Source: a virus. Taken from it: a DNA stretch of 51,657 nt. The stretch lies in IMG/VR virus record IMGVR_UViG_3300045988_164158, one strand, 5' to 3'. The notes beneath the pieces were generated by a model. It was given only the letters and a program-made list of their open reading frames with translations, had not been told where the DNA came from and made no database searches. The translations under genes were made by a program, and so were the position numbers. Positions 3,646 to 51,657 of the stretch are shown here, piece by piece (within the stretch, counting starts at the first letter, position 1; every line of letters starts with the position of its first letter).

Positions 3646-4201
3646 TTTCCGGTCTACCTGTAAATCCGTGCATCCATATAAACCATGCGTAACAAACCGC
3701 GCTTTTTTCTTTAACCGGAAAGAGGCCGTTTTTGCTCGATGGTATTCGTTCAGTGAATACACACACATATCGAGGGGGAAACCTGTCAAAAAATGCCTTG
3801 CGTTTCACAGATTCTAAAAATCTTATGTTTAAAAAATGGCAAGCAACAGGTACGAGTTCTATTGACCGTTTAACGCATTCTAAAGCGTGAGAATAAGGTG
3901 GATTAGTAATTATAGCATCAAAAGGTAAAGAATCATATAAAGTAGGTTTAAGAAAATCAACACCGCCGATGCCATATCCACGATTGATTAAGTCAGTAGA
4001 TACTACTTTATGACCGAAAGTAATAAGAGCTTCTGAAAGATGACCCCGTCCGGCACATGGTTCCCAAATGTATTTACCGCCATCGAGCCAACTAAGCACG
4101 GATAATAACGGCGGAATTGCTGAAGGGTGTGTAGCGTAGAAATCATATTCTTCGCGTTTTTCACCCTCTTTCCGATATAAACCGTGCATGTTACCGCTCA
4201 T
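3632..4201 (-). CDS. DNA N6-adenine methyltransferase
   Basis: Motif I-like IWEPCAGRGHL and catalytic motif IV IITNPPYS are both present. Confidence 0.8.
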   Translation of the reverse strand: MSGNMHGLYRKEGEKREEYDFYATHPSAIPPLLSVLSWLDGGKYIWEPCAGRGHLSEALITFGHKVVSTDLINRGYGIGGVDFLKPTLYDSLPFDAIITNPPYSHALECVKRSIELVPVACHFLNIRFLESVKRKAFFDRFPPRYVCVFTERIPSSKNGLFPVKEKSAVCYAWFIWMHGFTGRPEIIWL

Positions 4202-4231
4202 TTATATATTCTCTCCGATATTATTGTCTGA

Positions 4232-7353: not shown

Positions 7354-7815
7354 TTAAACAGTTTTCCATCGTTTAATAGGTTTCCATTTTGTCGAACATT
7401 CTTTTCGTCCGTTATCATATCTAAAGCCTGTTTTTTCATAGATATTAACATGTTTAGGTAAAATTTTAGGCCGGTAACATTCTTTAGGTTGATAATCATT
7501 TTCGGATATTTTTTTTGCCAAAGCTATATCCTCTTCTGTTATAGATTTTATATGATATTCGATAGTTGTATGATTAAATTTAGCGACGTCCCCTGCAGCA
7601 AGTTTCGGTAACTTTTCAATTACACAACATATATAACAATAAATTCTTTTAGGTTTTGTTTGATTACTATAACGCCCTGAAAATACTAATTGAAAGTAAT
7701 TTTCAACTTTTTTTAATATTTTTTCACATTTTTTTCTTGAATATTCTTTTCTACATTTCATGGAACAATAATTTTTATCAAAAGATGTTTTCACACCACA
7801 GTTAAGACATTTCAT
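7354..7815 (-). CDS. Cys-rich protein whose C-terminal half resembles the IS1595 transposase C-terminus (HTTIE...LPKHVNIYEKTGFRYDNGR). Probably the displaced 3' part of a decayed transposase.
   Basis: Motif resemblance to the hTNtiE / fRyNnR tail of ISXO2-like transposases. The ATGA overlap with the upstream ORF suggests a former single gene. Confidence 0.4.
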   Translation of the reverse strand: MKCLNCGVKTSFDKNYCSMKCRKEYSRKKCEKILKKVENYFQLVFSGRYSNQTKPKRIYCYICCVIEKLPKLAAGDVAKFNHTTIEYHIKSITEEDIALAKKISENDYQPKECYRPKILPKHVNIYEKTGFRYDNGRKECSTKWKPIKRWKTV

Positions 7816-8507
7816 TTCCCCTCACTTTCGCCGTTTAAGGCTTTATTAATCATATACGCAAGCCCTTCATCTTTAGCAAATTTTACTGCTGGGATACATT
7901 GCTTAAGTAAATCTTTAAGCTGGTTAATCTCTTTAGTTAATGACGGAGCTTGAACATTATCAACCTGTTTGGCATTTAATTTACCTTTTCTTTCAACCAT
8001 ACCAACAACCGGTATTTTATCTTTTGTGCTACGTCCTTGAGATTGTTCTACCTTTTTACAAGAATGTCTGTTTTTATTTTTCCCACCGATATAAGTTTCA
8101 TCAATTTCAACATCGTTATCTAAATGATTATCATTTTCAATACCGAAGCACTTGCGAATCCGTTGTAACATAAACCAAGCTGTTTTCTGGGTTACATCAA
8201 TATCCTTAGCAAGTTGAACGGACGATATTCCTTTTTTATGAGATGTTATTAACCAGATGGCTAAAAACCATTTTTTAAGAGGAATTTTAGTATTGTCAAA
8301 AAGTGTACCTGTTTTTACATTGAAATATTTTCCACTATTTGCACAACGATACCGATTGTTTTTACATTTATAAACTTTTGAAGAAGAATCAAAAGGGCTT
8401 GTAACATATCCATTCCAACGTAAATCTTCCAGATGAACAATCATGTATTGTTCATCTGGAAAAGCTTGCATTAGTTCTAATATTGAATTAAAATCTCTAT
8501 TAATCAT
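7812..8507 (-). CDS. IS1595-family transposase, N-terminal part (Zn-ribbon plus start of DDE domain), truncated
   Basis: YKCKNNRYRCANSGKYFNVKTGTLFDNTKIPLKKWFLAIWLI (Zn_Tnp_IS1595-like), then VEIDETYIGGKNK...IPVVGMVERKGKL (start of the ISXO2-like DDE domain). Ends before the remaining catalytic residues. Confidence 0.55.
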   Translation of the reverse strand: MINRDFNSILELMQAFPDEQYMIVHLEDLRWNGYVTSPFDSSSKVYKCKNNRYRCANSGKYFNVKTGTLFDNTKIPLKKWFLAIWLITSHKKGISSVQLAKDIDVTQKTAWFMLQRIRKCFGIENDNHLDNDVEIDETYIGGKNKNRHSCKKVEQSQGRSTKDKIPVVGMVERKGKLNAKQVDNVQAPSLTKEINQLKDLLKQCIPAVKFAKDEGLAYMINKALNGESEGK

Positions 8508-33136: not shown

Positions 33137-33531
33137 TGTGGAGTGACAAGTATATTTCCATACCCTTTGCCGACCATGGTCGTTCTAAAAATGGCTGTGA
33201 TTGTTGGGGATTGGTAACTGTCGTATATAAAGAAAAATTTAAGATTGATTTACCTTTTTTGTTAGATTATGATAATGTAAAAGATGTTCGACATATAACT
33301 ACTTTGTGTAAAAATGAATGTGAAAACTGGGAAGAAATATCTAAAAACGAGGAACAACCTTATGATGTATTGGTTTTTAACATTTTGGGCGCTCCTTGTC
33401 ATGTTGCGCTTGTGGTTGAAAAAGGTTTAATGCTGCATACAGAAAAAGGTATTGGTACACATATTAGCGATTATAAACGAGATAAACAATGGTGTAATCG
33501 TTTAGCAGGGATTTACAGATATGTTAAATGA
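33136..33531 (+). CDS. NlpC/P60-family tail assembly protein (lambda gpK-like)
   Basis: GCDCWGLV (catalytic Cys) and CHVALVV (His). The ATG at 33136 overlaps the upstream stop (TAATG). Confidence 0.6.
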   Translation: MWSDKYISIPFADHGRSKNGCDCWGLVTVVYKEKFKIDLPFLLDYDNVKDVRHITTLCKNECENWEEISKNEEQPYDVLVFNILGAPCHVALVVEKGLMLHTEKGIGTHISDYKRDKQWCNRLAGIYRYVK

Positions 33532-36500
33532 AGATATAATCGTTCAAAAATCTGTTTTACCGTTTAGACAGAATTTTGAAACTTTACGATTGCAGGATTG
33601 TAAAACACCTCAAGAAATTGTCAATAAACTTGTACCTTTTAACTTTGTGAATTGCAAGCTTGTTGTAACTCTCGATGGTGAAATATTATCAAAAGACAAA
33701 TGGAATCAAAAATTAAAAAAAGGGCAAATTGTCAGTCTTAATTACGTTCCTACCGGCGGCGATGATGGTAAAGCTGTTATGCAAGTTGTTATAACCATAG
33801 TAGCTATAGTAGCAACTGCATATTTAGGACCCATAGCAGGAGAAGCAATTGCGGCGGGTAATTATGGAACAGCTGCTTTGGCTGGGGCTGGTATTGTAGC
33901 TGTTTCTATGGTTTATAGTATGGCTATGAATGCACTTATGACAACCCCAAAACAATCAGACGGTACATTAGGTTATAAAGATTCTCAAACTCAATTTATT
34001 GAAGGAGCGAGTAATTCTATTAACAAGTTTGGGGTTATACCTGTCAATCTTGGAACAAATAAAATGTTCCCTCCTCAAGCAGCGTTACCTTATACAGAAA
34101 CGTCCGGTAACGACCAATATTGCCGACAGTTGTTTACTTATGGATATGGTAAAGTAACCGTCATTGAACGTAAGTTAGGTGAAACGATTTTAGATGATTA
34201 TGATTATGTGGAAGTTGAAGACAAGCTTAACGCAGATTTAAATTCCGGTACGTCTTTATATGCCAATGACATATATCAGGAAGATTTTAGCATTAAAGTT
34301 ACAAAAGAAGAATCTCCTTTTATTCGTACAACTCAAAAAGATTGTGACGAATGTATCTTAGATTTTACTTTTCAGGGCTTAGTCAATGGTATTACTCAAG
34401 GTAAGTACGCAGGATTAAAACTTAAAACAAGTGTTCAATTTGAAATCCAATTTGCTCCTATAAATACAGAGGATTGGAGTACATCTATTAACGGGGCTAC
34501 AATTCAAGAACAGTCAATAAATGCTGACATAAGTGTTTATTTGTTATACAGATTTTTAAATACTTGGGTTTGCCGTCGTTATTTTCTTGCTTTAAATACA
34601 CAAACCGGTGATATAAGTATTCATTCTGTTGATTCTAAAGTTAACAGACTTGAATATCCGTCTTTGTCTTCTGAATATGTTTATCTTGGTTATTATGAAA
34701 ATGGTTCTTTTCATGATTTAAGACAAAATCTTGTTGGTTCATCAATTGAAAGTATTGATAATTTTATTGTTACTACAGATGTTTCTGATAAATCTAATGC
34801 TTTAATAACTGTCGGAAGTGGTAACATTCTCGGTAGTACTTCAATGATGACGGTAACAGATGCAACATCAAGAGTTTTAAGAGTATCTCGACGAATAGTT
34901 TTTCCAGCAAGAGGTCAATATCAGATAAAAGTAAATCGTTTAACAGACGATTCAAACATTGATAGTTTATTAAATGATTCTTACTGGACGGCTTTAAAAT
35001 CAATTACTTATCGAAACCCTGTTAATTTTCCGAATATTTCAGGTACAGCTATGAGAATTAAAGCTACAGACCAATTGAACGGTACTGTAAATTCTTATAA
35101 CGCCATTGTTTCAACGCTTATGAAATCGTATAATCCTGATAAAGATTTATGGGTAGATGATGTTGCAACCTCCAATCCTGCTGATATTTTTCGATATGTT
35201 TTGCAATCTCCAGCTTTTGCAAAATATGAACAAATTACAGATGATAAAATTGATTTAGAAAAATTAAAAGAGTGGTGGATTTATTGTAATTCATTAAATT
35301 TAACTTTTAATAAAGTTATAGATTCGGATACAAGTATTGATGATGTTTTAAATGATATTTGTGCCGCCGGTGTCGCGACATTATCAAAAGTTGATAATGT
35401 CTTCAGTGTTATTATTGATAACGAACGTCCTTATGTCAAAGGACTAGTAACACCTCGTAATAGTTGGGATTATAAAGGAAATATCAATTATCCAGAACTT
35501 CCTGATGCACTTCGTGTTGAATTTCGTAATGCTGAGATAGGTTATAGTACCGATGAACGTATTGTTTACATGGACGGATTTGACGAAAATAATGCAAAGT
35601 TGTTTGAACGTTTAGAATTTTCAAGTTGTACAAACGCTGATTTGGCTTATTGGTATGGTAGACGATATTTTGCTACAGCTTTATTACAACCCGAAACTCA
35701 CACTTTCAAAATGGATTTTGAACATTTAACTTTTAATCGTGGGGACAGAATCAATCTCGTTAACGATGTCATTCTTGTTGGTGTCGGACAAGGACGTATT
35801 AAAGAGCTTATCACAGACGATGAAAATAATGTTACCGGTTTTGTTATTGATGACGAAGTAAATATTCCTACTAGTAAAAATTTTGCGGTTCGTATTAGAG
35901 ACAATAACGGCAAGGGGTTTAATTATTATTTGTTAAAACAATTTGTCGGAGTTAGCAATAGTTTTACTTTTGCACAATCTTTAACGGCTGAAAATGCCCC
36001 CGCTATTGGAAGTCTTTGCGCTTTTGTTGAAGACGGTAAAGAGCTTGATTTAATCATAACACAGATAAAAACTACCAGCAATGAAACAGCAACTATTACC
36101 GCTGTAGATTATGCTCCTGCAAGATTTACACCTATCGAAGAATTTCCTGAATGGTCAAGTAATATTACAATTCCGGGAGATTTTTATAAACCTTATGCTC
36201 CTGAATTGAATGGTGAAATTAAATCAGATGAATCTGTTATGATTAGAAATTCTGATGGTTCTTTAACTTCAATTATGATTATACCTCTTAAAAATCGTAA
36301 TGAAAATTCGGTAATCCCGGTAATACAAGTGAAAATTACAGGAGCTACTGAATGGTTTATACCAAACACTTTGAAAAACGATTCAAACGAGTTGGTTTTA
36401 ACAGGGCTTAGTGACGGTTCATATTATGATATAAGCATTCGTTATCAGCGTCAGACAGGTTTGCAGTTGCTTTCAGATGCTTTGTATATTAATAACGTTA

Positions 36501-37561
36501 AATTTGTCGGCGGTTCAACACCTCCAAAAGATGTTGAAAATTTTAGAGTTACTGTTACAAACGGATTAGCGCTTTTTGAATGGACTCCGACTGATGATGT
36601 TGACATATCTCATTATGTAATTAAATATTCTTTGGATACAGAAGATGTTAGCTGGGAAAGTGCACAGACAGCTGTTGCAAGAGTTACCAGCAATACGGTT
36701 ACCATGATTATACATCGAGGTATGTATCTTATTAAAGCAGTTGATTTAATGGGTTTTGAAAGTAAGAATCCAACTACTATTATTTCAATTGACAGCGGTG
36801 CTTATAAAAATGTTGTTGAAGAATTGATACAGCATCCAAATTGGGAAGGGAGAAAAGAAAATACATACGCAAGTGGTGGTATTTTAACTTTATCTCCTGA
36901 AAAATCCCAAGGATATTATTATTTTAATCCAGAACCTTTAGATTTAGGAGAAGTATACGAATGTTCTTTAACAGCTGATGTTAAAAGTAATGCTGGAAAC
37001 CGTTCGCGTGTTAGAGATATAGTTTCGGTTCGTTCTGTGGAATCAATTCGAAATTTTAATCTTTATTATCAAATAAGAACTGTTGAAAATATTAGAGCTT
37101 TGGAAGAAATTCGTACATTTTCATCGGCAAATTGGGAAACTCGTCTTGAGATGAATTTAAGCGATGATAATGTAAATTGGACAGGGTGGCAACAGTTTTC
37201 CGCTTCTCAACATACGTTTAGATATTGTAAATTTAGAATATTTTTATTTATTGATAATTTATTTTTTACTCCGAATGTATTAAAAGCGACTGTTACTGTC
37301 GACATGCCTGATAGATATGAAAGCGGTGAAGATATTGTAATAGCAAATGCGGAACTTGGACGTAGCATAACATATGAAAACGCTTTCTGGAACAATCCTT
37401 CAGTTAATGTAACGGTTCAGGATGGTGCTGTTGATGATAGAGTTGAATTTATTAATAAAGATAATAAAGGCTTTACAGTTAAAATTTTTAATGCTACCTT
37501 AAACTCATATGTTACAAGGTCTTTTGACTATATTTCGGCAGGTTACGGAAAGGTTGTTTAA
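33521..37561 (+). CDS. tail tip / host specificity protein, gpI-gpJ-like fusion
   Basis: 1346 aa. The N-terminal 150 aa (a beta-grasp-like segment then the hydrophobic stretch AVMQVVITIVAIVATAYLG) resemble lambda gpI. The remainder is gpJ-like with FN3-type repeats. Confidence 0.7.
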   Translation: MLNEDIIVQKSVLPFRQNFETLRLQDCKTPQEIVNKLVPFNFVNCKLVVTLDGEILSKDKWNQKLKKGQIVSLNYVPTGGDDGKAVMQVVITIVAIVATAYLGPIAGEAIAAGNYGTAALAGAGIVAVSMVYSMAMNALMTTPKQSDGTLGYKDSQTQFIEGASNSINKFGVIPVNLGTNKMFPPQAALPYTETSGNDQYCRQLFTYGYGKVTVIERKLGETILDDYDYVEVEDKLNADLNSGTSLYANDIYQEDFSIKVTKEESPFIRTTQKDCDECILDFTFQGLVNGITQGKYAGLKLKTSVQFEIQFAPINTEDWSTSINGATIQEQSINADISVYLLYRFLNTWVCRRYFLALNTQTGDISIHSVDSKVNRLEYPSLSSEYVYLGYYENGSFHDLRQNLVGSSIESIDNFIVTTDVSDKSNALITVGSGNILGSTSMMTVTDATSRVLRVSRRIVFPARGQYQIKVNRLTDDSNIDSLLNDSYWTALKSITYRNPVNFPNISGTAMRIKATDQLNGTVNSYNAIVSTLMKSYNPDKDLWVDDVATSNPADIFRYVLQSPAFAKYEQITDDKIDLEKLKEWWIYCNSLNLTFNKVIDSDTSIDDVLNDICAAGVATLSKVDNVFSVIIDNERPYVKGLVTPRNSWDYKGNINYPELPDALRVEFRNAEIGYSTDERIVYMDGFDENNAKLFERLEFSSCTNADLAYWYGRRYFATALLQPETHTFKMDFEHLTFNRGDRINLVNDVILVGVGQGRIKELITDDENNVTGFVIDDEVNIPTSKNFAVRIRDNNGKGFNYYLLKQFVGVSNSFTFAQSLTAENAPAIGSLCAFVEDGKELDLIITQIKTTSNETATITAVDYAPARFTPIEEFPEWSSNITIPGDFYKPYAPELNGEIKSDESVMIRNSDGSLTSIMIIPLKNRNENSVIPVIQVKITGATEWFIPNTLKNDSNELVLTGLSDGSYYDISIRYQRQTGLQLLSDALYINNVKFVGGSTPPKDVENFRVTVTNGLALFEWTPTDDVDISHYVIKYSLDTEDVSWESAQTAVARVTSNTVTMIIHRGMYLIKAVDLMGFESKNPTTIISIDSGAYKNVVEELIQHPNWEGRKENTYASGGILTLSPEKSQGYYYFNPEPLDLGEVYECSLTADVKSNAGNRSRVRDIVSVRSVESIRNFNLYYQIRTVENIRALEEIRTFSSANWETRLEMNLSDDNVNWTGWQQFSASQHTFRYCKFRIFLFIDNLFFTPNVLKATVTVDMPDRYESGEDIVIANAELGRSITYENAFWNNPSVNVTVQDGAVDDRVEFINKDNKGFTVKIFNATLNSYVTRSFDYISAGYGKVV

Positions 37562-38098
37562 ATGTCACAAACGTTAGTAGATTTTTCAGGAAATCCTTCT
37601 GGTGCAGAATTGATGGATGATTATCTGACACCAATGCAAGAAAACATTTTAACATCTAACAGCGGCACAACCCGTCCTGATTATGCCAAAGAAGGAACTA
37701 AATGGATTGATAAAACTCAAACCCCTTGGCTTTTAAAACTTTATGATGGTTCACAAGATATTGTTCTCGGAGAACTTGACCCTAACAAACATTCTTTTGT
37801 AGCAACAGACCCGATGACGACAGCGGGTGATTTGATTGTTGAAGGCAATGATGGAATCCCGGTAAGATTAGCTGCTGGAACGGCAGGGCATGTTTTAACA
37901 TCTAATGGTCCGGGAACTTTGCCAAGTTATCAATTAGGTGTTTATGCAAATACTGATTTAAGTAATTTAACTGACGCAGGTAATACTGTTATTGATAATC
38001 GCGTAATAAATCTTATGAATAGTCGTCTTCAGGTAGTTAATAGTTTACCAGAAAATCCTGATTTAGATACGTTTTACTTTATTAAAGAGAGTATTTAA
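37562..38098 (+). CDS. tail fibre protein
   Basis: Position. Ser/Thr/Gly-rich. Confidence 0.45.
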   Translation: MSQTLVDFSGNPSGAELMDDYLTPMQENILTSNSGTTRPDYAKEGTKWIDKTQTPWLLKLYDGSQDIVLGELDPNKHSFVATDPMTTAGDLIVEGNDGIPVRLAAGTAGHVLTSNGPGTLPSYQLGVYANTDLSNLTDAGNTVIDNRVINLMNSRLQVVNSLPENPDLDTFYFIKESI

Positions 38099-39699
38099 TG
38101 ACTGTTTATAAAAGCTCATCGAAAATTGCCGATACTGGCGTTCATGGTATTAATTTCGGGAGTCAGCAAATCAAACAGATTTTTACGGCTCCGAGAACAA
38201 ACGGAATTACTTATATTCCGCAGGACATAAAATTTGAGATTGTTGATGGTACAACGCCGACCCTGTATGCCGGAAGCGAAGTCTGGGTTCCTTATGGCCG
38301 TAACGCTCCTGAATATTCAATCGGCGACAGTCTGAACAGTGGCATTATCACGGCTATAAGCTGGGACGGTTCGGCTTTGTTTTATAAGGTTCGTTATGAT
38401 ACAGACCTTAGCATTGACATCACTTCAGACCCGGCGATTGCCGAGTTCGTGACTTCAATATCTCCATCCTACAGTTTCTGGTGGTTCAATCCCACCTACA
38501 GTCAGGATACGGCGCCAAGCGGCTTCGGACAGTATGCGCTTTGGTACGATACGGCGGAAAATATTGTAAAAATTACGATTGATTCCGGTTCAACGTGGCA
38601 AAATTACGCGTCGCTTCCTGTTGGTGTTTTTACAATGGCTGGCACCGGCGCCACAAAGACGCTTAAATATGTTTTTAACGGCGTCGGCTATATCGGCACG
38701 ACGGTTTTTGCGGTTCCGGGCGTGAAGGGGCTGATGGCCGACGGGTTGAACGAGGACGGCAGCTATAAAACTATTTCCAGAACTATTGAATATATGACGT
38801 ATCGCAATTTGAATTTTTCGAGAGAAAAATTTTATTGTTTCATCAGAATGGATTTGCACGGAATCGACGGCGAACATTACATCGAAGCGGACGAGTTACC
38901 GGAGACGGCAAAACAGTACACAGTTTGTTACCGAAAAACAGATAATACCCTTTGGTGGACGACAGAAGCCAACAGCACTTCATGGTTTCAGATTTGGGCT
39001 ATTCCGGTTGGTTTTATATCATGCGACGACACAAAAATAACATCTTGGGAACCGGCTAAAAACTTTATAAAGGTTTATCAATACAATTCCTATGAACCGC
39101 AACAAATACTTGTTAACATAAGCGGTACTGCGTCAACCGACATTACATTCAAGAGAGGGGTATACTACATCCGGGCGCAGGGCGCTGGCGGTGGCGGCGG
39201 TAATTATGCATATCCTTATGGTAATGGTAACGGCGGTGGTTCTGGCGCAGGTTTTGAAGGATATATTTATGTAAGAAAAGAATTTTCATCGAGTGTTACT
39301 ACAGGAGTTGGTGGAGGTAGCGCATCCGCTGGCGCAAACACTCAAATAAACGGGGTTATGCTGTTAGGTGGTGGTCAAGCCGGTCCAACCACTTCGGGAG
39401 GAACTGTTGACCCATCTGGTGTACCCGGTACTATTACTATTGATAGTAATAATTTGAATAATCTTTTTACTATTGTATCGGCTACCGTAAATCGTAACGG
39501 TAATTACGGTTCCAAAGCCATTGGCGGCAATAGCGTATTAACTAACTCAGGTGCCGGTCAATCTGGCGGTGGTGCCGCTACTGCACCGGGTGCGGGTGGC
39601 GGTGGAACGTCATCCATTGGCGGCAAGGGCGGTCCCGGTGGCGATGGAGAATGCCTTATTCAGTATATTGGTTATGAACCCGAGGGGGGGGGTAACTAA
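38098..39699 (+). CDS. tail fibre protein, Gly-rich C-terminus, terminated immediately after a G9 homopolymer
   Basis: 533 aa. GAGGGGGNYAYPYGNGNGGGSGAG repeats. Locally GC-rich. The stop lies 7 nt after the G9 tract (39684-39692). Confidence 0.6.
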   Translation: MTVYKSSSKIADTGVHGINFGSQQIKQIFTAPRTNGITYIPQDIKFEIVDGTTPTLYAGSEVWVPYGRNAPEYSIGDSLNSGIITAISWDGSALFYKVRYDTDLSIDITSDPAIAEFVTSISPSYSFWWFNPTYSQDTAPSGFGQYALWYDTAENIVKITIDSGSTWQNYASLPVGVFTMAGTGATKTLKYVFNGVGYIGTTVFAVPGVKGLMADGLNEDGSYKTISRTIEYMTYRNLNFSREKFYCFIRMDLHGIDGEHYIEADELPETAKQYTVCYRKTDNTLWWTTEANSTSWFQIWAIPVGFISCDDTKITSWEPAKNFIKVYQYNSYEPQQILVNISGTASTDITFKRGVYYIRAQGAGGGGGNYAYPYGNGNGGGSGAGFEGYIYVRKEFSSSVTTGVGGGSASAGANTQINGVMLLGGGQAGPTTSGGTVDPSGVPGTITIDSNNLNNLFTIVSATVNRNGNYGSKAIGGNSVLTNSGAGQSGGGAATAPGAGGGGTSSIGGKGGPGGDGECLIQYIGYEPEGGGN

Positions 39700-40195
39700 G
39701 CTAGAGTATTTTCAAACCCCAACATTAACTGCGTCAATAACCCCTGTTGCAGAGGGTAATATTGTCGTAACCTCAAGCTACAATAATACGAGTTCTTGGA
39801 ACAATTTGTGCAACAACAGTTATATTATGAGGAATACTATTTCAACTACCTCTGATAGCGGTTATTGGCAGATGAATGGTTCTAATACTCAATGGCTGCA
39901 AATTAAATTTCCCTATACATTGATAATAAAGGGAATGACAATCGCAAGCCGACCGAATGATAATTATACCGGAACGGTAACGGCCTATACGAACGCCGAT
40001 AAAATCGTTAATATGGGTTCGGTTACGACCAACGCTAAAGCAACCAACTTTACATTAACTAACATAGGAATTGGAGCTTTTGTAACAGATACAATTTATC
40101 TTTATATTACGGATATGAATGAATGGTACGGTTTGCAGAATTTGCAGATAAGAGGATATAAGGTTTTAGACAAATCTCTCTCTCTCTTTCTCTGA
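39551..40195 (+). CDS. tail fibre C-terminal module in a shifted frame (out of frame with the 38098..39699 gene because of the G9 tract). Coding sequence probably begins only after 39693.
   Basis: Downstream of the G tract the frame-2 translation (KLEYFQTPTLTASITPVAEGNIVV...) is fibre-like. The upstream 140 nt of the track ORF overlap the Gly-rich gene in another frame and are unlikely to be coding. Confidence 0.45.
   Translation: MPVNLAVVPLLHRVRVAVERHPLAARAVPVAMENALFSILVMNPRGGVTKLEYFQTPTLTASITPVAEGNIVVTSSYNNTSSWNNLCNNSYIMRNTISTTSDSGYWQMNGSNTQWLQIKFPYTLIIKGMTIASRPNDNYTGTVTAYTNADKIVNMGSVTTNAKATNFTLTNIGIGAFVTDTIYLYITDMNEWYGLQNLQIRGYKVLDKSLSLFL
39684..39692. repeat. G9 homopolymeric tract at the junction between two tail-fibre reading frames
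   Basis: Only G/C homopolymer of 8 or more in the window. A change of -1 or +2 G fuses the 38098 ORF to the downstream fibre domain. Confidence 0.9.
40175..40193. repeat. (TC)n dinucleotide tract (TCTCTCTCTCTCTTTCTCT) at the 3' end of the fibre module, ending in its stop codon
   Basis: Direct reading. Adding one TC unit puts the downstream 40218 ORF in frame. Confidence 0.85.
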
Positions 40196-40217
40196 GCCAG
40201 ACCCAGAGCCAAGTGAA

Positions 40218-40502
40218 GTGACTTATTATTGCTATGATGATACGGGAAGTAATTACACTTATTTGTATACAACGACAACCAATTTTGTAGTTGGCAAACC
40301 TGTTACTTTTCATATCAATAAGCAAATAAAAGATAATGTTGCGTATACAGAGTTGGCGACTTCTTCCGCCGATTTTAACGATACTGTTTCAGTAACCCCG
40401 ACGAACTTGGGAACAAATACTTTTAAATATGAATTATTAATGTCTGGATATTACTTAACTTATGAATTCAAACGAACCCCTGATTATGATTTTACAGAAT
40501 AA
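40218..40502 (+). CDS. hypothetical fibre-associated protein / possible distal fibre domain (GTG start)
   Basis: ORF in frame 0. The frame is open for 48 nt upstream, back through the TC tract. Confidence 0.35.
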   Translation: MTYYCYDDTGSNYTYLYTTTTNFVVGKPVTFHINKQIKDNVAYTELATSSADFNDTVSVTPTNLGTNTFKYELLMSGYYLTYEFKRTPDYDFTE

Positions 40503-40504
40503 TT

Positions 40505-40803
40505 AGGCAGTTCTCTCCCAGATATTAACGGCCAAATTTGTTCTGGTTATTGTCGCTTTAAGACCTGATTTGGTAGAATCGGTAGTTACGCCGTAGATTC
40601 CTCGACTGACACCAGTACCAGCAGATGAAGAAAGAACTTCACTAGCGTTTCTACCATAAGCGGTTTTTTCAGCATATAAAACATCGTTTGTACCTTGAAT
40701 AATGCCATATTTGCCATTGGGATTTGCAGAAACATTTACAGGACCTTGTAAGCCAAGAGCTAAACCATTACCTGCAACACTTGCGGATGTATTAACATCA
40801 ATA
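40505..40803 (-). pseudogene. start-less antisense ORF fragment (about 100 aa) resembling a tail-fibre C-terminal segment
   Basis: Minus-strand open frame IVIDVNTSASVAGNG...NIWERTA with no ATG/GTG/TTG start (TGA immediately upstream). Its N-terminus resembles TITIDSNNL...NGNYG of the 38098 gene. Confidence 0.35.
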
Positions 40804-41006
40804 ACAATATTTCAGAACGTCATAAAATTATCATTAAATCCAGATATATCGACAAGCTTAAATTTAAGCAAATACCTGATGTTAAAGGTGTTAATTGTGA
40901 ATTAAGACATGTCATGAATTTGCATAAAGAAGTCATAGACAAACTTATAAATCTTTAAAATCAATACTTTATCTTTACATATTTTCAACATTTTAAATTT
41001 TATACA

Positions 41007-41050
41007 ACCTTGCTACTTTACAAATGGAGAGCAAGGTTATTTTGTACTTT
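41007..41050 (+). terminator. rho-independent terminator closing the tail-fibre region
   Basis: AACCTTGCT...AGCAAGGTT 9-bp stem followed by ATTTTGTACTTT. Confidence 0.55.
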
Positions 41051-41101
41051 ATCAATTCTTTCAAAATTATCCTCTCTCTGTATTTTAAAGGGAGTTAAAC
41101 C

Positions 41102-41503
41102 ATGTTTGAAAATAATACATTAAATCAGTACAGCTCAAACAATCAAAGTTTTATCGGCTTTGTACAAAATGGAAAAATATTTAATTCTTATGGGCAGCAG
41201 CTTGGTTATATCACAGATGAATACAATAAAGCTATTGAAACAGCTAAAGGTTTTCAACAGAAATTGATAGAAGCCGGAATACTTGTAAAACCTAAAACAC
41301 CTGAAGAAATAAATCAGGAATTACAAGAAACGTTAAAACAAACTCAAACAATGATGACAGAAATGTCCAATACTATCATTTCCTTAAATGAAAAAGTCAA
41401 TAAATTAGAGGAGAAGAAAGATGTTCAACAAGCAGTCAATCCTGTCAATGGCAGGACGATTCTTACCACAAGAAAAGATTCAACTCCTAAGTCAGGCGTA
41501 TGA
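41102..41503 (+). CDS. hypothetical protein
   Basis: ORF with AAGGGAG Shine-Dalgarno. Confidence 0.4.
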   Translation: MFENNTLNQYSSNNQSFIGFVQNGKIFNSYGQQLGYITDEYNKAIETAKGFQQKLIEAGILVKPKTPEEINQELQETLKQTQTMMTEMSNTIISLNEKVNKLEEKKDVQQAVNPVNGRTILTTRKDSTPKSGV

Positions 41504-41768
41504 TTTTGCTAATAAAATAACTGACATTACGCAAAACCCGAAAGAAGCTTTAGAAAAAGCCGGTGTTACTCGAGAAGATTTGGAAAAAGCGAAAAAACTT
41601 ATAAACAATCCTATGGCTGGTTTTTTTCTCGGTGATAAAAAACAATCAGTTATTGACGGATTAAATAGAGCCGAATCGTTATTCGATAAACAAGTTAACT
41701 CATTATCTGAACAAGCCCCGGTTAATGAGTTAGAGCAATTGCAAGCTAATCTTGCAAGGCTTAAGTAA
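41421..41768 (+). CDS. hypothetical protein (overlaps the previous ORF in another frame)
   Basis: GAGGAG Shine-Dalgarno 7 nt upstream of the ATG at 41421. Confidence 0.4.
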   Translation: MFNKQSILSMAGRFLPQEKIQLLSQAYDFANKITDITQNPKEALEKAGVTREDLEKAKKLINNPMAGFFLGDKKQSVIDGLNRAESLFDKQVNSLSEQAPVNELEQLQANLARLK

Positions 41769-41793
41769 TGTCGGGCTTAACGGAGAATATATA

Positions 41794-42369
41794 ATGGATA
41801 AAGAATCTTATAGTTGGGGAGGGATTGGTTTTCTTGCCTTGTTCTTCCTGATTATCATTGCTTTTTGGGGCCGTGGTGGTAACGGTTTTGGTTGGGGTAA
41901 TAACTGCGGTAACGGTTTTGCCCCTTTTGGTGATGGTATTGGTTTCGGTGCTTCTAGTTATGGTTTCCAGAATTATCGTGCAACCTGTGATGCTGAAAAA
42001 TCTGAAATCATCAATACCGCCCGTACTCAGTATCTGGTAGAACAGCAGGCTGCTGGCACTCGTGAGCTGGTTAATGCAACGGCTAATGCAACTCAGACCA
42101 AAATTGATTTTTATGCTTATCAGGCAGAACGTGACAAAGTTGCTGACCGTGACCGTAGAATTATGTCTTTGGAAAATCAGCTGTTTATGAAAGACCAGCT
42201 TGCAGCGTTGACGGCTTCAATTGCTGATATTCGTTGCAACATGCTTACCCGTCCGAATATTACCGGGGTTGGTGCGGTTTGCCCGAATGCTGGTGTTTTG
42301 AACGGTTTAGGAATTGACCGTTTCACTGGTTGCGGCTGTGGTTGCAACAGTAACAGTGTTCTAGTTTAG
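41794..42369 (+). CDS. membrane protein with N-terminal TM helix and glycine-zipper-like Gly-rich segment
   Basis: Start at MDKESY with GGAGA Shine-Dalgarno. GIGFLALFFLIIIAFWGRGGNGFGWGNNCGNGF. C-terminal CGCGC. Confidence 0.4.
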   Translation: MDKESYSWGGIGFLALFFLIIIAFWGRGGNGFGWGNNCGNGFAPFGDGIGFGASSYGFQNYRATCDAEKSEIINTARTQYLVEQQAAGTRELVNATANATQTKIDFYAYQAERDKVADRDRRIMSLENQLFMKDQLAALTASIADIRCNMLTRPNITGVGAVCPNAGVLNGLGIDRFTGCGCGCNSNSVLV

Positions 42370-42382
42370 TTAACTCCCGTTC

Positions 42383-42415
42383 GGGGGCTGAAATACGCCC
42401 CCTGATTTTTCTTTT
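42383..42415 (+). terminator. rho-independent terminator
   Basis: GGGGGC-TGAAATAC-GCCCCC followed by TGATTTTTCTTTT. Confidence 0.65.
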
Positions 42416-42429
42416 ATTGGAGAAATAAA

Positions 42430-42825
42430 ATGACTTGTAATTGTGATATTTTAACTATCAAATCAACTTCTATTGCTATGGCTGGAAGTCAATTGTTAAT
42501 CAATATTCCTGCTGTAACATTGGCAAATCATCAAGAATTTAGACTTATTTTATGTCAGCCGATTCCAACAGCAGCTGGTGTTAGTCAGGTTCTTTTGCAG
42601 ACCCCTACACAAACTATTGAAATGCGTTTACGCACGGGTAACTATGTAAGAGCAGACCAAATTAAATGTCGCAGATGCTATGATATGGTCTACGGCAATA
42701 ACCCTGTTCATGCTTCAATGCTTTGTTTGTTGAAAAAAAGTTGTTACGACGTAGCATTTCCAACTGGGGCGGCAACGTCTACAGCAACGGCTGCTGCAAA
42801 AACAAATGTAACTCAAAAGGTGTAA
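42430..42825 (+). CDS. hypothetical protein
   Basis: ORF with GGAGA Shine-Dalgarno, set between terminators. Confidence 0.4.
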   Translation: MTCNCDILTIKSTSIAMAGSQLLINIPAVTLANHQEFRLILCQPIPTAAGVSQVLLQTPTQTIEMRLRTGNYVRADQIKCRRCYDMVYGNNPVHASMLCLLKKSCYDVAFPTGAATSTATAAAKTNVTQKV

Positions 42826-42828
42826 GAA

Positions 42829-43005
42829 ATGCAAGGGCTTGGTAAATTTATCATAGGCTATATTTTAGGTAATGAAAAAGCTAGAAATTGGTGTATTGAA
42901 AAAATATGCCAAGCCTCTTGTATTATTGAAAAAGAATTAAAAAAGACACCTATCGCAAAACTCGTAAATAAGGAGAGTAAAGATGAAATTTCAGGAAATA
43001 ATTAA
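42829..43005 (+). CDS. small hypothetical protein (58 aa), not in the ORF track
   Basis: AAGGTG Shine-Dalgarno 7 nt upstream of the ATG. Overlaps the start of the next gene. Confidence 0.25.
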   Translation: MQGLGKFIIGYILGNEKARNWCIEKICQASCIIEKELKKTPIAKLVNKESKDEISGNN

Positions 43006-43426
43006 AGAATATACATGCTCCGATTCTGAAAAAGATATGTATATTTTAACTGAAATGATTGATGATTTTATTTGTGAAGTTAAAACTCTTCATCCTGAAA
43101 TAGTTAATCATTTTTTAAGAAATTTGCAAATGTATCAGCATCCTTTGCGTGACAGGGAGACGGCTGAATATGCAGTTTCAAAACTTAAAAATGAAGACGG
43201 TTCCGTTGGGGAACATTGGGATTTTGAAACAACGTCTAAACTTGCTGACAAATATGAAATACACGATAAACCTGCGTTCTATTATGTACTCAATATGATT
43301 TACAGTGATTTATATGAATCAGGCCGGTCCGATTCAGAGTATGTTAAAGATGCTGTAAAATTTATAAATGATAAGGATGCTCCTCATGATAAAGCTGAAA
43401 GATATTATCGTGCTATGAATTATTAA
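42983..43426 (+). CDS. hypothetical protein
   Basis: ORF with AAGGAGAG Shine-Dalgarno. Confidence 0.4.
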   Translation: MKFQEIIKEYTCSDSEKDMYILTEMIDDFICEVKTLHPEIVNHFLRNLQMYQHPLRDRETAEYAVSKLKNEDGSVGEHWDFETTSKLADKYEIHDKPAFYYVLNMIYSDLYESGRSDSEYVKDAVKFINDKDAPHDKAERYYRAMNY

Positions 43427-43445
43427 TGTTGACATTTTCATTGAT

Positions 43446-43476
43446 AGGGGCTACGCTAAAAACAGCCCCTTTTTTG
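43446..43476 (+). terminator. rho-independent terminator
   Basis: AGGGGCT...AGCCCCT stem followed by TTTTTTG. Confidence 0.6.
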
Positions 43477-43492
43477 TCAAAGGGTATAATTT

Positions 43493-43858
43493 ATGAGAAG
43501 TAAATCAATGACACAACCTCAACAAAGAGTAGCTCTTGACATGATATTAGCCGAAGAAAATCACGGCGGTCTGTCATCGGCAGCTTTGTTGCTTCATCAA
43601 AAACAGGCTGAAGATGCCGAAAAAATGGATAAAAGAATGTGTGAAATTGAAAAAAAAGTCGATACCCTTGATAAAAAATTTGATTCTCTCGATAAAAAAG
43701 TTGATGAAATAAAAGATTTAATAGCCAAAAAAACAAGTTTTATAGAAAATATAAAAGAAATTTTAAGTAATAAAATTTTTATTTACCTATTGATAATTAT
43801 CACTGCCTCCGCCTGCGGTGTTCAAGTTGCAGATTTAGGAACGTTTTTATTTAAATAA
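43493..43858 (+). CDS. coiled-coil protein with C-terminal TM helix (lysis-associated or holin-like candidate)
   Basis: KKVDTLDKKFDSLDKKVDEIKDL coiled coil, then IFIYLLIIITASACGV. Confidence 0.35.
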   Translation: MRSKSMTQPQQRVALDMILAEENHGGLSSAALLLHQKQAEDAEKMDKRMCEIEKKVDTLDKKFDSLDKKVDEIKDLIAKKTSFIENIKEILSNKIFIYLLIIITASACGVQVADLGTFLFK

Positions 43859-44152
43859 AAAAGAAAGGGTTGATAATGAATGTTGGAAAAGTAACTTTAA
43901 ATAAAAACATGGCGATTTAAATCTGTTTATACTGGTAATGTTTGGAGAACTGCTGTAGCTACTCCGTTAGCAAATATTAAAGCAGGGGATACAGGTATTA
44001 CAAGTATTAATTATATCGGATATAGAATTTTAGACGATGATAATATTGCACACAAAAGTGATATTGAATCGTTAACTAATCTTATAAACGATTTAACAAC
44101 TAGATTAACAGCTTTAGAAAATAAAACATAGTTATAACGAAAAGGGGGTAAT

Positions 44153-44734
44153 ATGATTTATCTGATTTCATTGGGAATTGTCGTTATTTCGGCGCTGTTA
44201 TGGCGCATTCGCGGCGGACTTTGGAAAGAATATATCCCGGAAAATAAAATCTGGTATGCGCTTTTTTTCGGCATTTTGGGGTATTTTTATTTTGGAAACA
44301 GCCTCGAGAAAGCCGTTGTCGGCTGCATTGCTTGTTTCACGTCTTATAAGCTTTATGGCTGGGGACTGTATATCGGTCGGCTGCTGGAGGGCGGCCAGCT
44401 TAATCCGAACCTTGTGCAATATCGGGAGTGTGAGCTGATAGACGATTTGCTTTATTCCTGCCGAATTACTTTTAAAGGCAAAACTATCTGGTTGTATGAA
44501 TATCCGAAACTGTTCGGCTTTTGCGGTACGACGTTGACCGGTCTAATCATTACATTTTTGTGGGGTTTGTATTTTGGCAGCCTGCCGCTAATGCTTTCCG
44601 GTATTGCAATGGGTGTGTGTTACTGGGGTGGCGGTTTGCTTGAGAAACTTAAAGCGCTGGGAAAATCCGGCTGGAATTGGGGGGAATACATCTTCGGTGC
44701 TTATCTCGGCGGCTGGCTGGTGTGGATAATTTAA
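44153..44734 (+). CDS. multi-pass membrane protein, probable holin
   Basis: Four or more hydrophobic helices immediately upstream of the endolysin gene. The gene is a local GC-rich island. Confidence 0.45.
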   Translation: MIYLISLGIVVISALLWRIRGGLWKEYIPENKIWYALFFGILGYFYFGNSLEKAVVGCIACFTSYKLYGWGLYIGRLLEGGQLNPNLVQYRECELIDDLLYSCRITFKGKTIWLYEYPKLFGFCGTTLTGLIITFLWGLYFGSLPLMLSGIAMGVCYWGGGLLEKLKALGKSGWNWGEYIFGAYLGGWLVWII

Positions 44735-44735
44735 T

Positions 44736-45161
44736 ATGTACAGAAATAAAGATGTAGATATTCTTGCCAGAACTATATACGGGGAGGCAAGGGGAGAAGC
44801 AAAAATTGGTAAATGTGCCGTTGCATCGGTTATTTTAAACAGATATAAAGCACATAAATGGTTTTCGGGTAAAACTATCGCGGATACATGCCAATTTTGC
44901 GTCAAAGGCTCAAAATACCATCAATTTAGTTGCTGGAATGAGGATGACCCGAATTTTACCTTAATTAATCGCATTTCTGAAAGTGATAAAGTCTTTTGCG
45001 AATGTATAGATATAGCAGAGAAATATATATCTGGAATTTATAAAGACGTGGTTTGCGGAGCCTGCCATTATTGCGCTGTTGGGGTTAACCCTGCGTGGGC
45101 AAAAGGAAAAAAACCTGATTTACGAATCGGTCGTCATTTATTTTATTGTGAGGTTGAATGA
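44736..45161 (+). CDS. endolysin, SleB-like cell-wall hydrolase (Hydrolase_2 family)
   Basis: LARTIYGEARGE...AVASVILNR...QFSCW motifs. Confidence 0.75.
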   Translation: MYRNKDVDILARTIYGEARGEAKIGKCAVASVILNRYKAHKWFSGKTIADTCQFCVKGSKYHQFSCWNEDDPNFTLINRISESDKVFCECIDIAEKYISGIYKDVVCGACHYCAVGVNPAWAKGKKPDLRIGRHLFYCEVE

Positions 45162-45541: not shown

Positions 45542-45602
45542 AAATGAGTAAATGTTATCGCAAACGCCAATAACACGCATAGTATATGATAAAATTTGGC
45601 AG

Positions 45603-46028
45603 ATGTCAATGCAAATTTGGGTAGACGGGGCTTTTAATTGTAAAACGAAAGATGCCGGATTAGGAATTTTAATTCGGGAAATGATACCAAACGGCACTAA
45701 AGAAACCAGATTACATATAAAAACTAAAGCTGAAGATAATAATCAAGCAGAATTGCTCGCCATATATCACGCCCTTCAACATATTAAAGGATGTAAACCT
45801 AAAGAACCTGTTTTTATTATTACAGATAGTCAAATTGCTATTGATAGTATAAATAATCCAGAAAACAAAAAACTTAAATATAGAGAGATAGCGGAAAGAA
45901 TACGAGCTATGTTATATTGTGAAAAATGGAAAATATATCATAAAAAAGCACACACTGGTGGGAAAGATAGATATTCAATTTATCAAAACCTTACAGATAA
46001 ACTTGCAAAAAAAATTGATTTACAGTAA
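45603..46028 (+). CDS. RNase H (type 1)
   Basis: QIWVDGAF (D), NNQAELLAIYHAL (E), IITDSQ (D), KAHTGGKDRYSIYQNLTDKLA (H/D). Confidence 0.7.
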   Translation: MSMQIWVDGAFNCKTKDAGLGILIREMIPNGTKETRLHIKTKAEDNNQAELLAIYHALQHIKGCKPKEPVFIITDSQIAIDSINNPENKKLKYREIAERIRAMLYCEKWKIYHKKAHTGGKDRYSIYQNLTDKLAKKIDLQ

Positions 46029-49379: not shown

Positions 49380-50224
49380 TAATACGGTATTCTATCATTA
49401 ACCAACGTAGAAAACGGTTGACCCGATGCAGGCTGAGCAGTCGGCACACCTTGCGCATTGTTAACAAAATCATAAGCAGGGGCGGGCATAGGAGCCTGCG
49501 GCATTACAGGAGCCTGCGGCATTACAGGAGCCTGCGGCATTACAGGAGCCTGCGGCATTGGCATCTGTGCTGTGCCAGGTGCTGAACTGATAGGTGTTGC
49601 CGATGCTCCGACAGGTACAGCAGACACCTGACCGCCAAACAATTTCATCGGGTCGGCATTTACCGAACCTTTAATCGCCTGACCGTATCCAACAATTTCA
49701 TAAGCGTTTGGATTCCAATAAATACCCCCGTCTTTTTCAGTATGTACGGTCAAATTGACGCTTGTAACAACATAATCGCCGGTTTTAACTTCCCCTGCTT
49801 CAACTTTACGGTAAGCTCCGTTTTCAAACTTGTAAGTCGAAGGACAGAAAGCCGATGTACGAATTTTGATGACATAACAACCTTTGTAACCGTCACGGGT
49901 ATTGTACGGTACATTTGACCCTTGCGGACAAGCAGGGCTGTCACCGTTAATGATTTTCCAAGCAAATCTCGTCATTTCAAGCTGTTCAGGATTTACATTT
50001 GCGTATTGCGGATAGATTTTTGCAACTTCCTGAACAACATAAGGCCAAACATTCTGCATAAATTCAGCTTTAGGAATGGCAAGGTCGATACGATGTTCTT
50101 TGACAGGTTGACCGTTTTTATCCGTTTTAGGCTGTTTGGTATAAAAATCAATCGCCTGTTCAAATTTATTAGGATCGCCGCCGACAATACGACCAGCCGG
50201 CAATTTAAAGCATTCTAACGTCAT
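49379..50224 (-). CDS. DUF2815-like putative ssDNA-binding protein with a Pro-rich (PQAPVM)n repeat linker and C-terminal PAPAYDFVNN...DRIPY tail
   Basis: N-terminal GRIVGGDPNKFEQA...RIDLAIPKAEF resembles the DUF2815 rlsYphlFep...llIPK pattern. Located in a DUF2800/polymerase module. Contains a 21-bp tandem repeat. Confidence 0.4.
   Translation of the reverse strand: MTLECFKLPAGRIVGGDPNKFEQAIDFYTKQPKTDKNGQPVKEHRIDLAIPKAEFMQNVWPYVVQEVAKIYPQYANVNPEQLEMTRFAWKIINGDSPACPQGSNVPYNTRDGYKGCYVIKIRTSAFCPSTYKFENGAYRKVEAGEVKTGDYVVTSVNLTVHTEKDGGIYWNPNAYEIVGYGQAIKGSVNADPMKLFGGQVSAVPVGASATPISSAPGTAQMPMPQAPVMPQAPVMPQAPVMPQAPMPAPAYDFVNNAQGVPTAQPASGQPFSTLVNDRIPY
49485..49565. repeat. 21-bp tandem repeat (GGAGCCTGCGGCATTACAGGA, about 3.7 copies) encoding (PQAPVM)n
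   Basis: Direct reading. Confidence 0.85.
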
Positions 50225-51300: not shown

Positions 51301-51657
51301 TCACAAACCTTTTTTAACCAATTCGTTAATTACATAACTAAGAGCCTGTGCATTACCTCTCAATTCAGCAGCTCCTTGATAAGAAGTCCCATAAGTAGCA
51401 TTAACACCGGCAATCACATTTTGCATGAAATTAGCATCAAGCACTTTCATCTGTAAACCGTTACGTAACTGTTCGAACATTCTGTTGTAAAGAGCTTCCG
51501 GGTCTTCTGCAACAGAAGACGTTGTGGCTTCAACAGGTGCCTGACAAGCGACGGTATTATTAATGAAATCATATGCCGGAGCAACCGGAGCAACCGGAGC
51601 AACCGGAGCAACCGGAGCAACCGGAGCAACCGGAGCAACCGGAGCAACCGGAGCAAC
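51301..51657 (-). CDS. C-terminal part of the repeat-containing protein that starts at 372 (wraps around the window ends)
   Basis: Frame ...(APV)n-APAYDFINNTVACQAPVEATT...VINELVKKGL*, with a TGA at 51301-51303. The repeat is in the same frame as the left-end segment. Confidence 0.6.
   Translation of the reverse strand, partial: VAPVAPVAPVAPVAPVAPVAPVAPVAPAYDFINNTVACQAPVEATTSSVAEDPEALYNRMFEQLRNGLQMKVLDANFMQNVIAGVNATYGTSYQGAAELRGNAQALSYVINELVKKGL
51577..51657. repeat. Tandem 9-bp repeat (AACCGGAGC)n at the right window end
   Basis: Direct reading. Identical unit and phase to 1..81. Confidence 0.9.

Follow-up and report, generated by a model that had tools for sequence, protein, structure and literature searches.

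The fibre locus and its two repeats

The phage contig IMGVR_UViG_3300045988_164158 from IMG/VR, a JGI/IMG metagenome contig analysed here over its whole length of 51,657 nt (the window), is a complete, circularly permuted genome of ~51.6 kb with a GC content of 37%, and its Pfam and PHROG matches are those of a siphovirus-like gut phage with a gpJ-type tip. The tail-fibre locus of this phage comprises three open reading frames (ORFs), each in a different frame, which we refer to as modules 1, 2, and 3 and which meet at two simple repeats, a G9 homopolymer at junction 1 and, ~500 bases downstream, a (TC)n tract at junction 2 (Table 1). Module 1 is glycine-rich in its C-terminal part and ends in YEPEGGGN followed by a stop, module 2 ends inside the TC tract, and module 3 is the 94-amino-acid (aa) ORF that follows. 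Among related genomes, the lengths of both repeats vary such that the modules are either fused in one reading frame (ON) or separated (OFF), and the window genome is OFF at both junctions, with G9 and (TC)6.

Table 1. Features of the window genome discussed in the text
Feature	Position (nt)	Strand	Remarks
gpJ-like central tail fibre gene	33521-37561		Upstream of the fibre locus; Pfam FNIII-A_GpJ, PHROG 31
178-aa fibre-associated gene	37562..38098	+	Adjoins the fibre gene on its 5' side; weak PHROG matches (virion structural protein, tail collar fibre protein)
One arm of the 26-nt inverted repeat	37998-38023		Within the 178-aa gene; first arm only
Fibre module 1, 533-aa ORF in the window	38098..39699	+	phrog_6202 (E=1e-7) and phrog_863 (E=1e-6), both tail fiber families
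Junction 1, G9 homopolymer	39684..39692	+	OFF in the window
TAACTAA box	39693..39699	+	Directly 3' of polyG; read from the sequence
Fibre module 2, ~165 aa	39692..40195	+	+1 frame relative to module 1; ends DKSLSLFL + stop; ORF as listed, 39551..40195
Junction 2, (TC)6 TT (TC)2 T	40175..40193	+	OFF (+1 class) in the window; (TC)7 allele in frame
TGA ending the module-2 frame, within the TC tract	40193..40195	+	
Pro/Glu-rich linker EPDPEPSE	40194..40217	+	Module-3 frame, 5' of the nominal GTG start
Fibre module 3, 94-aa ORF	40218..40502	+	GTG-started, third frame; predicted small all-beta domain
Joint of the 545-nt deletion relative to L007 and L006	40806..40812		
ISXO2-like DDE transposase domain ORF	7812-8507	-	E=6e-12
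RNase H / RVT_3 domain ORF	45552-46028	+	E=7e-13
Perfect 9-mer array (AACCGGAGC, ~9 copies)	1-82, 51576-51657		Both contig ends; within a minus-strand ORF
Perfect 18-mer tandem array (AGGAGCCTGCGGCATTAC, 3.9 copies)	49490-49559		Within a minus-strand ORF

A preliminary description of this DNA had proposed that module 2 terminates within the TC tract, that the 94-aa ORF's frame extends upstream through the tract without a stop, and that one additional TC unit would fuse the two. All three statements hold. The last codons of module 2 read GTT TTA GAC AAA TCT CTC TCT CTC TTT CTC TGA (V L D K S L S L F L stop), in which a pure (TC)6 at 40175-40186 is followed by TT(TC)2T to 40193, and Tandem Repeats Finder reports the whole as a period-2 repeat of 9.5 copies at 40175-40193. 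Because the downstream frame, which reads TNLSLSFSEPDPEPSEV-TYYCYDD, is open back only to a TAG at 40167-40169, the stretch in which both frames are open, 40170-40192, is little more than the tract. Both wrong frames at junction 2 stop ahead of module 3, at 40193-40195 and 40219-40221, and the 2-nt addition that joins the frames exists in nature, as (TC)7 in L006/L004 and L007.

At junction 1, the frame is maintained when the number of G residues equals 2 modulo 3. The TAACTAA box that follows, conserved in every lineage examined, stops translation in both wrong frames (GGT AAC TAA with G9, GGG TAA with G10), whereas the in-frame reading is (V)TK/N. Since either wrong frame meets a stop just past the tract at both junctions, truncation falls at domain boundaries.

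It had also been suggested that two such repeats at consecutive junctions of one fibre locus are hard to ascribe to chance, and our results agree with this view. Apart from the G9 run, the window contains no run of at least 7 G or C residues, and apart from the TC tract it contains no dinucleotide repeat of more than 4 units. When the genome was shuffled with its dinucleotide composition preserved, a dinucleotide repeat of at least 6 units arose in 15 of 1000 shuffles (1.5%) and a G/C run of at least 9 in 41 of 1000 (4.1%). The codons that make up the tracts are also rare ones, with TCT accounting for 24.5% of Ser, CTC for 5.4% of Leu, and GGG for 13% of Gly codons in the window, and under this codon usage the probability that SLSLS would be encoded as pure TC is ~4e-5. 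It follows that the DNA repeat dictates the SLSLS peptide, rather than the reverse.

Repeat length and reading frame in related genomes

Close relatives of the window carry a TC repeat of a different length. L007 (ENA ERZ825137) is ~97-100% identical to the window across aligned segments, and L006/L004 (IMG/VR 3300029623_000011) is ~99% identical; both carry (TC)7, and in L007 the fibre is a single open frame of ~801 aa that terminates in the 94-aa sequence. Over 39052-40812 (1761 nt), the window and L007 differ by substitution at 39 sites, and the G tract and the TC tract account for the only two indels, while five A/T runs of 7-8 nt within 40806-44948 have the same length in the window and L006 despite 52 substitutions. 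An invariant repeat length had been set beforehand as a finding that would speak against a switch. Instead, (TC)6 in the window is OFF and (TC)7 in L007 and L006 is ON, and the tracts of L027 and L028 differ by one CT.

Reading-frame states were computed for 10 loci of the lineage to which the window belongs (the TC lineage) and for 11 loci of a sister lineage (the A lineage), which has a non-homologous linker, GTC-A(n)-TAC, at the equivalent joint. ON, OFF(+1), and OFF(-1) states are all represented, and changes in tract length toggle the frame (Table 2); within the TC lineage alone, the junction 2 offsets are 0, +1, and -1. In P0038 (809 aa), a tract of the L028 type is in frame, and the fused fibres of the sister lineage (L002 and L009) comprise 786-791 codons. 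PolyG length ranges from G3 to G13 among the relatives, and all four ON/OFF combinations of polyG and junction 2 occur among natural genomes, as expected from the earlier proposal that two switches would allow up to three C-terminal isoforms. The protein word-index searches had incomplete recall (P0025 was missed), and counts from them are not used as frequencies.

Table 2. Tract alleles and frame states at the two junctions in related loci; the (TC)6 and (TC)7 alleles are given in the text
Junction	Tract	Loci	State and product
1	G5	L001	ON
1	G8	L002, L003, L007, L008, L009, L010, L022, L027	ON
1	G3	L011	OFF
1	G9	window/L026, L012	OFF
1	G10	L016, L017, L024	OFF
1	G12	L014	OFF
1	G13	L015	OFF
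2, TC lineage	AA(CT)7	L025	OFF(+1)
2, TC lineage	(TC)6T + three TGAGCC hexamers	L029	OFF(+1)
2, TC lineage	(CT)6-GTC-T6-CCC	L027	OFF(-1)
2, TC lineage	L027-type tract plus one CT	L028	OFF(+1)
2, TC lineage	(CT)3CC(CT)4TT-C9-T6-CTCT	L022, L023	OFF(-1)
2, A lineage	A8	L003, L010, L001	OFF; ends KVKKNT-stop; in L001, module 3 replaced by unrelated sequence
2, A lineage	A9	L002, L009, L011, L012, L014, L016, L017	ON; protein reads KVKKKYLVNEPS...
2, A lineage	A10	L015	OFF; ends KVKKKILS-stop

Over 6771 nt, two loci from different ENA records show a single difference, G3 in L011 and G12 in L014, which amounts to 9 nt and leaves both OFF; this may reflect either a large slippage event or the collapse of polyG by the assembler. 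A further variant of the locus is present on a different phage backbone, L013 (Logan SRR23947611), where positions 4111-4220 hold a junction 2 relic that lacks a long repeat (GACCAATATACCTCTTAATGAGCCAGAGCC...) and is followed only by the first codons of module 3 (EVTYYC), and where junction 1 is an interrupted G tract, GGGGGGAGGG.

Maintenance of modules 2 and 3 as fibre domains

Both distal modules are maintained as coding sequence. Module 2 is free of internal stops and frameshifts in 14 genomes, whatever their switch state, with a mean ratio of nonsynonymous to synonymous substitution rates (dN/dS) of ~0.18 and values of 0.08-0.11 between diverged pairs in which junction 1 is OFF in both genomes. 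L008 has no module 3, and in L001 it is replaced; the 13 genomes that have kept it all carry it without internal stops or frameshifts, and within the A lineage the differences in module 3 are mostly synonymous. The 94-aa ORF is also conserved as an in-frame C-terminal fibre domain, the lack of which in any relative had been named as grounds for abandoning the idea of a switch: it is fused in L007 and P0038, and a homologue occupies the same place in L002 and L009. Homologues of module 3 are further present in P0002 and in P0024, where the domain stands behind an unrelated upstream domain and a PEEPEEPETP linker. Across three lineages, module 3 aligns in the pattern EP-linker-TYYCY...VG...D...T...N...T...G...F..R...D, and an equivalent in-frame EP linker is present in every lineage.

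As for the folds of these domains, AlphaFold predicts the window's module 3 as a 7-strand all-beta domain with a disordered linker at a mean predicted local distance difference test score (pLDDT) of 64, while the prediction for P0002, which contains modules 2 and 3, is poor (pLDDT 44). Fold searches were uninformative. Module 2 has a sub-threshold Pfam match to F5_F8_type_C (E=0.021) and a weak match to APC10 (E=0.96), and it may possibly be a galactose-binding-like (discoidin-like) beta-sandwich. Module 3 also matches immunoglobulin (Ig) I-set repeats in P0021, though the match adds up 8 weak repeats and counts as a hint only.

The modules are also found in other arrangements. In L024 (~2960-3010) and P0042, module 2 is cleanly deleted, and module 1 leads through polyG (G10 in L024 and G9 in P0042) and VTKLE-PSEV directly into module 3; with module 3 directly behind polyG in this way, the repeat linkers serve as breakpoints for module shuffling as well. 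In P0022 (78 aa, Logan), residues 1-51 are module 3, and the stretch after them, GGGGGYQWNINGGAGSDGECLVKFVKFY, is similar to the end of module 1's glycine-rich C-terminal part; this chimera could represent either a recombinant fibre architecture or a misassembly.

Flanking features and relatives of the phage

In L007, L022, and L025, the fibre gene is enclosed by a 26-27-nt inverted repeat, both arms of which encode RVINLMNS in frame (L007 1805-1830 and 4713-4738; L022 759-785 and 3688-3714; L025 749-774 and 3643-3668). The segment flanked in this way takes in the 3' end of the 178-aa gene, the fibre gene in full, and a convergent gene of 136 aa (MNSLYPIGSIYFG...) that has a weak Pfam match to Gp10_C (E=4e-4), a layout like that of the Mu G segment. 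By analogy with the Mu G and P1 C segments, inversion would swap the C-terminus of the 178-aa protein. The inverted configuration itself was not found in a search that was not exhaustive, as the listed members of the convergent-gene cluster are all stand-alone proteins of 117-136 aa and no recombinant junction was present in IMG/VR, nor was a resolvase or invertase domain found in the 10 window ORFs searched, which was likewise not an exhaustive survey. The window has kept only the first arm. Compared with L007 (4620-5165) and L006 (948-1493), it lacks a 545-nt segment whose two edges have ~7 nt in common, and the deletion takes with it the second arm, the convergent gene's 5' end, and an ORF of ~63-70 aa for a small putative membrane protein with a hydrophobic stretch (MEVFNMDNMVEIIKEARKAGMQT...).

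Neither megablast of the locus nor tblastn with the complete fibre (801 aa) against 50,697 phage records found a cultured relative. The large terminase subunit shares only ~60% identity with its homologues in Rhizobium phages, and two scans of GTDB representative genomes, one using a module-2 profile and the other the gpJ-like protein, revealed no prophage. The Shine-Dalgarno usage of the phage, an NlpC/P60 domain, and a Hydrolase_2 lysin point to a gut host among low-GC Gram-positive bacteria. Elsewhere, the window encodes an ISXO2-like DDE transposase domain and an RNase H / RVT_3 domain, and it contains two tandem arrays. The 9-mer array encodes an (APV)n linker, and its true copy number is uncertain because the contig was closed inside it. 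The 18-mer array is the only non-collinear spot between the window and the otherwise 100%-identical scaffold L026, suggesting a difference in copy number.

Slippage at inter-domain linkers as the preferred reading

We consider it probable, at roughly 0.68, that the fibre locus is a contingency locus, that is, a three-module gene in which the linkers are encoded by hypermutable repeats and DNA slippage varies the distal tips. The single fibre gene would consist of module 1 as an anchor and glycine-rich shaft, module 2 as a beta-sandwich of ~160 aa, and module 3 as a beta domain of ~93 aa, with polyG encoding the linker at junction 1 and the TC/pyrimidine tract encoding that at junction 2. Slipped-strand mispairing during replication of the phage DNA would add or remove repeat units, in-frame lengths would permit read-through into the next module, and out-of-frame lengths would lead to a stop within a few codons of the domain boundary. 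The progeny would then carry fibres of ~533, ~700, or ~801 aa that differ in their distal, presumably receptor-binding, tips. Slippage of RNA polymerase on the long homopolymers could superimpose additional heterogeneity on that produced at the level of DNA. We infer slippage as the mechanism, fast and reversible switching, and an effect on adsorption or host range.

Several points weigh against this account or limit how far it can be taken. All of the evidence comes from consensus assemblies, and heterogeneity within populations, the rate of switching, and its reversibility are therefore presumed, as is a connection to host range and phenotype. PolyG lengths in short-read assemblies may be imprecise, as the G3 and G12 alleles in otherwise identical contigs illustrate, and a near-identical IMG/VR contig breaks on either side of junction 1, which makes this junction unreadable there and is at most a hint of mixed tract lengths within one population. 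L022-L029 were retrieved by way of stand-alone 94-aa proteins and are OFF by construction, so ratios of ON to OFF alleles cannot be read from them. L026 matches the window at 100% identity over 19.3 kb and, possibly originating from the same sample or strain, may not be independent. Finally, module 3 of close relatives within the TC lineage differs by 0 synonymous and 5-8 nonsynonymous substitutions, which cluster at residues 60-72; this pattern would fit diversifying selection, as on a variable binding loop, but also relaxed constraint.

Alternative explanations

The last of these points is also what would be expected if the repeats were mutational hot spots without a switch function, where the OFF state is a neutral or mildly deleterious loss of the tip and the repeats are by-products in tolerant linkers. 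Such a scenario would account for the commonness of OFF alleles (18 of the 19 members of the 94-aa ORF cluster are stand-alone) and of products ending in KVKKNT-stop, for the outright deletion of module 2 or module 3 in L008, L001, L013, and L024, for the exclusively nonsynonymous changes in module 3 among close relatives, and for the 545-nt deletion that adjoins the fibre gene in the window. It does not, however, readily explain why no distal module has an internal lesion in any genome, why purifying selection on module 2 remains strong even when OFF genomes are compared with each other, why ON and OFF alleles are interleaved among close relatives, why the TAACTAA double-stop box is conserved, or why sister lineages recruited different repeat types at the equivalent joint and two tracts stand in series. 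On balance, we regard this explanation as rather unlikely. A recoding mechanism, whereby programmed ribosomal frameshifting (+1 or -2 on the UC repeat) or slippage during transcription would append the distal modules without any change of genotype, is less probable again, and we give it little weight. It is compatible with the intact distal modules in OFF genomes, a -2 shift on a dinucleotide repeat is inferred from the sequence to re-pair both tRNAs perfectly, and runs of A8-A10 and G8-G13 are long enough for RNA polymerase to slip. Yet the offset between modules is not conserved (0, +1, and -1), fully in-frame alleles are common, and the tract sequences are wholly different between lineages. 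There is also no stable RNA structure after either junction (fold z = +1.0, +0.66, -0.78, and +0.78), no conserved canonical slippery heptamer, and no Shine-Dalgarno (SD) element positioned as in prfB. Because all three offsets occur and no stimulatory RNA structure lies 3' of the tracts, programmed frameshifting is rejected as the main mechanism, and slippage at the level of DNA is favored over programmed recoding.

Whether the OFF state of the window is real at all deserves consideration, since homopolymers and short repeats are error-prone, and G9 and (TC)6 might be consensus errors in a genome that is truly fused as G8/(TC)7; the G3 and G12 contigs and the contig break at junction 1 do hint at trouble in assembling polyG. 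Against an artefact of this kind, the G9/(TC)6 state recurs in L026 (ERZ28595215 / SAMEA2338841), a separately assembled ENA scaffold, identical composite OFF tracts are present in L022 (ERZ27264174) and L023, which come from different runs and assemblers, and the other homopolymers in the contigs that carry the tracts are invariant. Short reads also normally resolve A8 from A9 and A10 and (TC)6 from (TC)7, and we consider an artefact highly improbable. Just as improbable is that module 3 is an independent gene, translated alone from the GTG at 40218 as, for example, a small accessory or decoration protein. Gene callers do list a separate 94-aa protein in many contigs, but no SD-like motif precedes this GTG, whereas 16 of the 23 other genes have one, and an in-frame Pro/Glu linker lies 5' of it in every allele. 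The absence of an SD-like motif and the presence of this EP linker upstream make independent translation unlikely, as do the absence of a start codon at the equivalent position in the sister lineage and the existence of fused forms.

Implications of a probable linker-placed switch

Beyond slippage as the source of variation, it is conceivable, although we put the odds at somewhat below even, that the two tracts constitute an evolved device for modular bet-hedging. Selection would in this case have repeatedly recruited whichever repeat arose at the linkers, be it polyG, polyA, (TC)n, or the C9/T6 composite, each with stops in both wrong frames, and a burst would contain a graded mixture of virions with 0, 1, or 2 distal binding domains. 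In the relatives, this device would be layered on an invertible fibre cassette that is still recognizable. Were this the case, the locus would represent the first contingency locus of a phage to be built on a dinucleotide repeat, and also the first instance of serial, domain-by-domain phase variation of a receptor-binding protein.

Recombination, diversity-generating retroelements, and invertible segments are the usual explanations for host range in gut phages, and the fibre locus described here suggests a cheaper route, as repeats placed at linkers would allow one fibre gene to yield tip-less, one-tip, and two-tip virions through replication slippage. There are also implications for annotation. 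The 94-aa ORF is annotated separately in ~20 database entries; gene callers split such fibres into "hypothetical" fragments, and receptor-binding proteins and the host-range predictions made from metagenomes are therefore systematically misread at tracts of this kind. With natural ON and OFF alleles at two junctions and lineages that differ in repeat type, the locus offers a testable system for asking whether phage contingency loci are adaptive or mere mutational hot spots.

Comparison with known systems

Accessory domains are appended to several phage structural proteins by programmed frameshifting, as in the tail chaperone G/GT, the addition of Ig-like domains, and the +1 shifts of Listeria phage PSA. 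The fibre locus resembles these systems in that an accessory beta-domain is added at the C-terminus from an overlapping frame and the isoforms share an N-terminus. It differs in that the offset varies, in-frame alleles are common, and stimulatory structure is absent, whereas frameshift extensions have a fixed offset and a conserved slippery site. Phase variation through CT dinucleotides is well known from the outer-membrane protein genes of Helicobacter pylori, where the repeat lies in the 5' signal-peptide region and turns the whole protein on or off. The preliminary description had drawn a parallel to these CT/AG repeats, which is apt insofar as a coding CT/TC repeat switches frame when its unit number changes; it is an analogy of mechanism only. 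Unlike in H. pylori, the repeat here belongs to a phage gene, lies at an internal 3' linker, and trims the distal domain only.

Among phages, invertible tail-fibre segments in Mu (G segment) and P1 (C segment) give rise to alternative fibre C-termini and host-range switching, as cited in PMC10579305. The window's relatives share with Mu and P1 an in-frame 26-nt inverted repeat that brackets the fibre gene together with a convergent fibre-like gene, but the locus described here works by repeat length rather than inversion, and the window kept one repeat arm only. Contingency loci based on polymerase slippage at homopolymers of at least 6 nt, producing reversible frameshifts over many genes and interpreted as bet-hedging, have been described for T2/T4 and other phages (Gomez, Barrick & Waters, bioRxiv 10.1101/2025.10.21.683753), and the same work reports that homopolymer repeats are under-represented in tail-fibre and infection genes. 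In contrast to the T2/T4 loci, the repeats here are the most extreme in the genome and are placed precisely at the domain joints of a fibre gene.

The nearest counterpart is found in Campylobacter phages of the genus Fletchervirus, in which hypermutable polyG tracts (7-11 G) in receptor-binding protein genes lead to populations that are mixed in host recognition (Sorensen et al. 2021, Cell Rep 35:109214, as summarized in PMC10579305 and in bioRxiv 10.1101/2025.10.21.683753). In both cases, a repeat within a phage fibre or receptor-binding gene shifts the frame as its length changes, and junction 1 is, like the Fletchervirus tracts, polyG (G8-G13). Homology to the receptor-binding proteins of Fletchervirus was not found by tblastn of the 801-aa fibre against the 50,697 phage records or by megablast. 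Furthermore, junction 2 is not polyG but a TC, polyA, or C9/T6 composite tract, and two tracts stand in series at domain linkers, where they would produce nested C-terminal truncations rather than switch a whole protein on or off. Thus, receptor-binding genes that are phase variable through polyG are already known, and what is new is the dinucleotide repeat and the presence of two serial switches at domain linkers, with graded truncation of the fibre.

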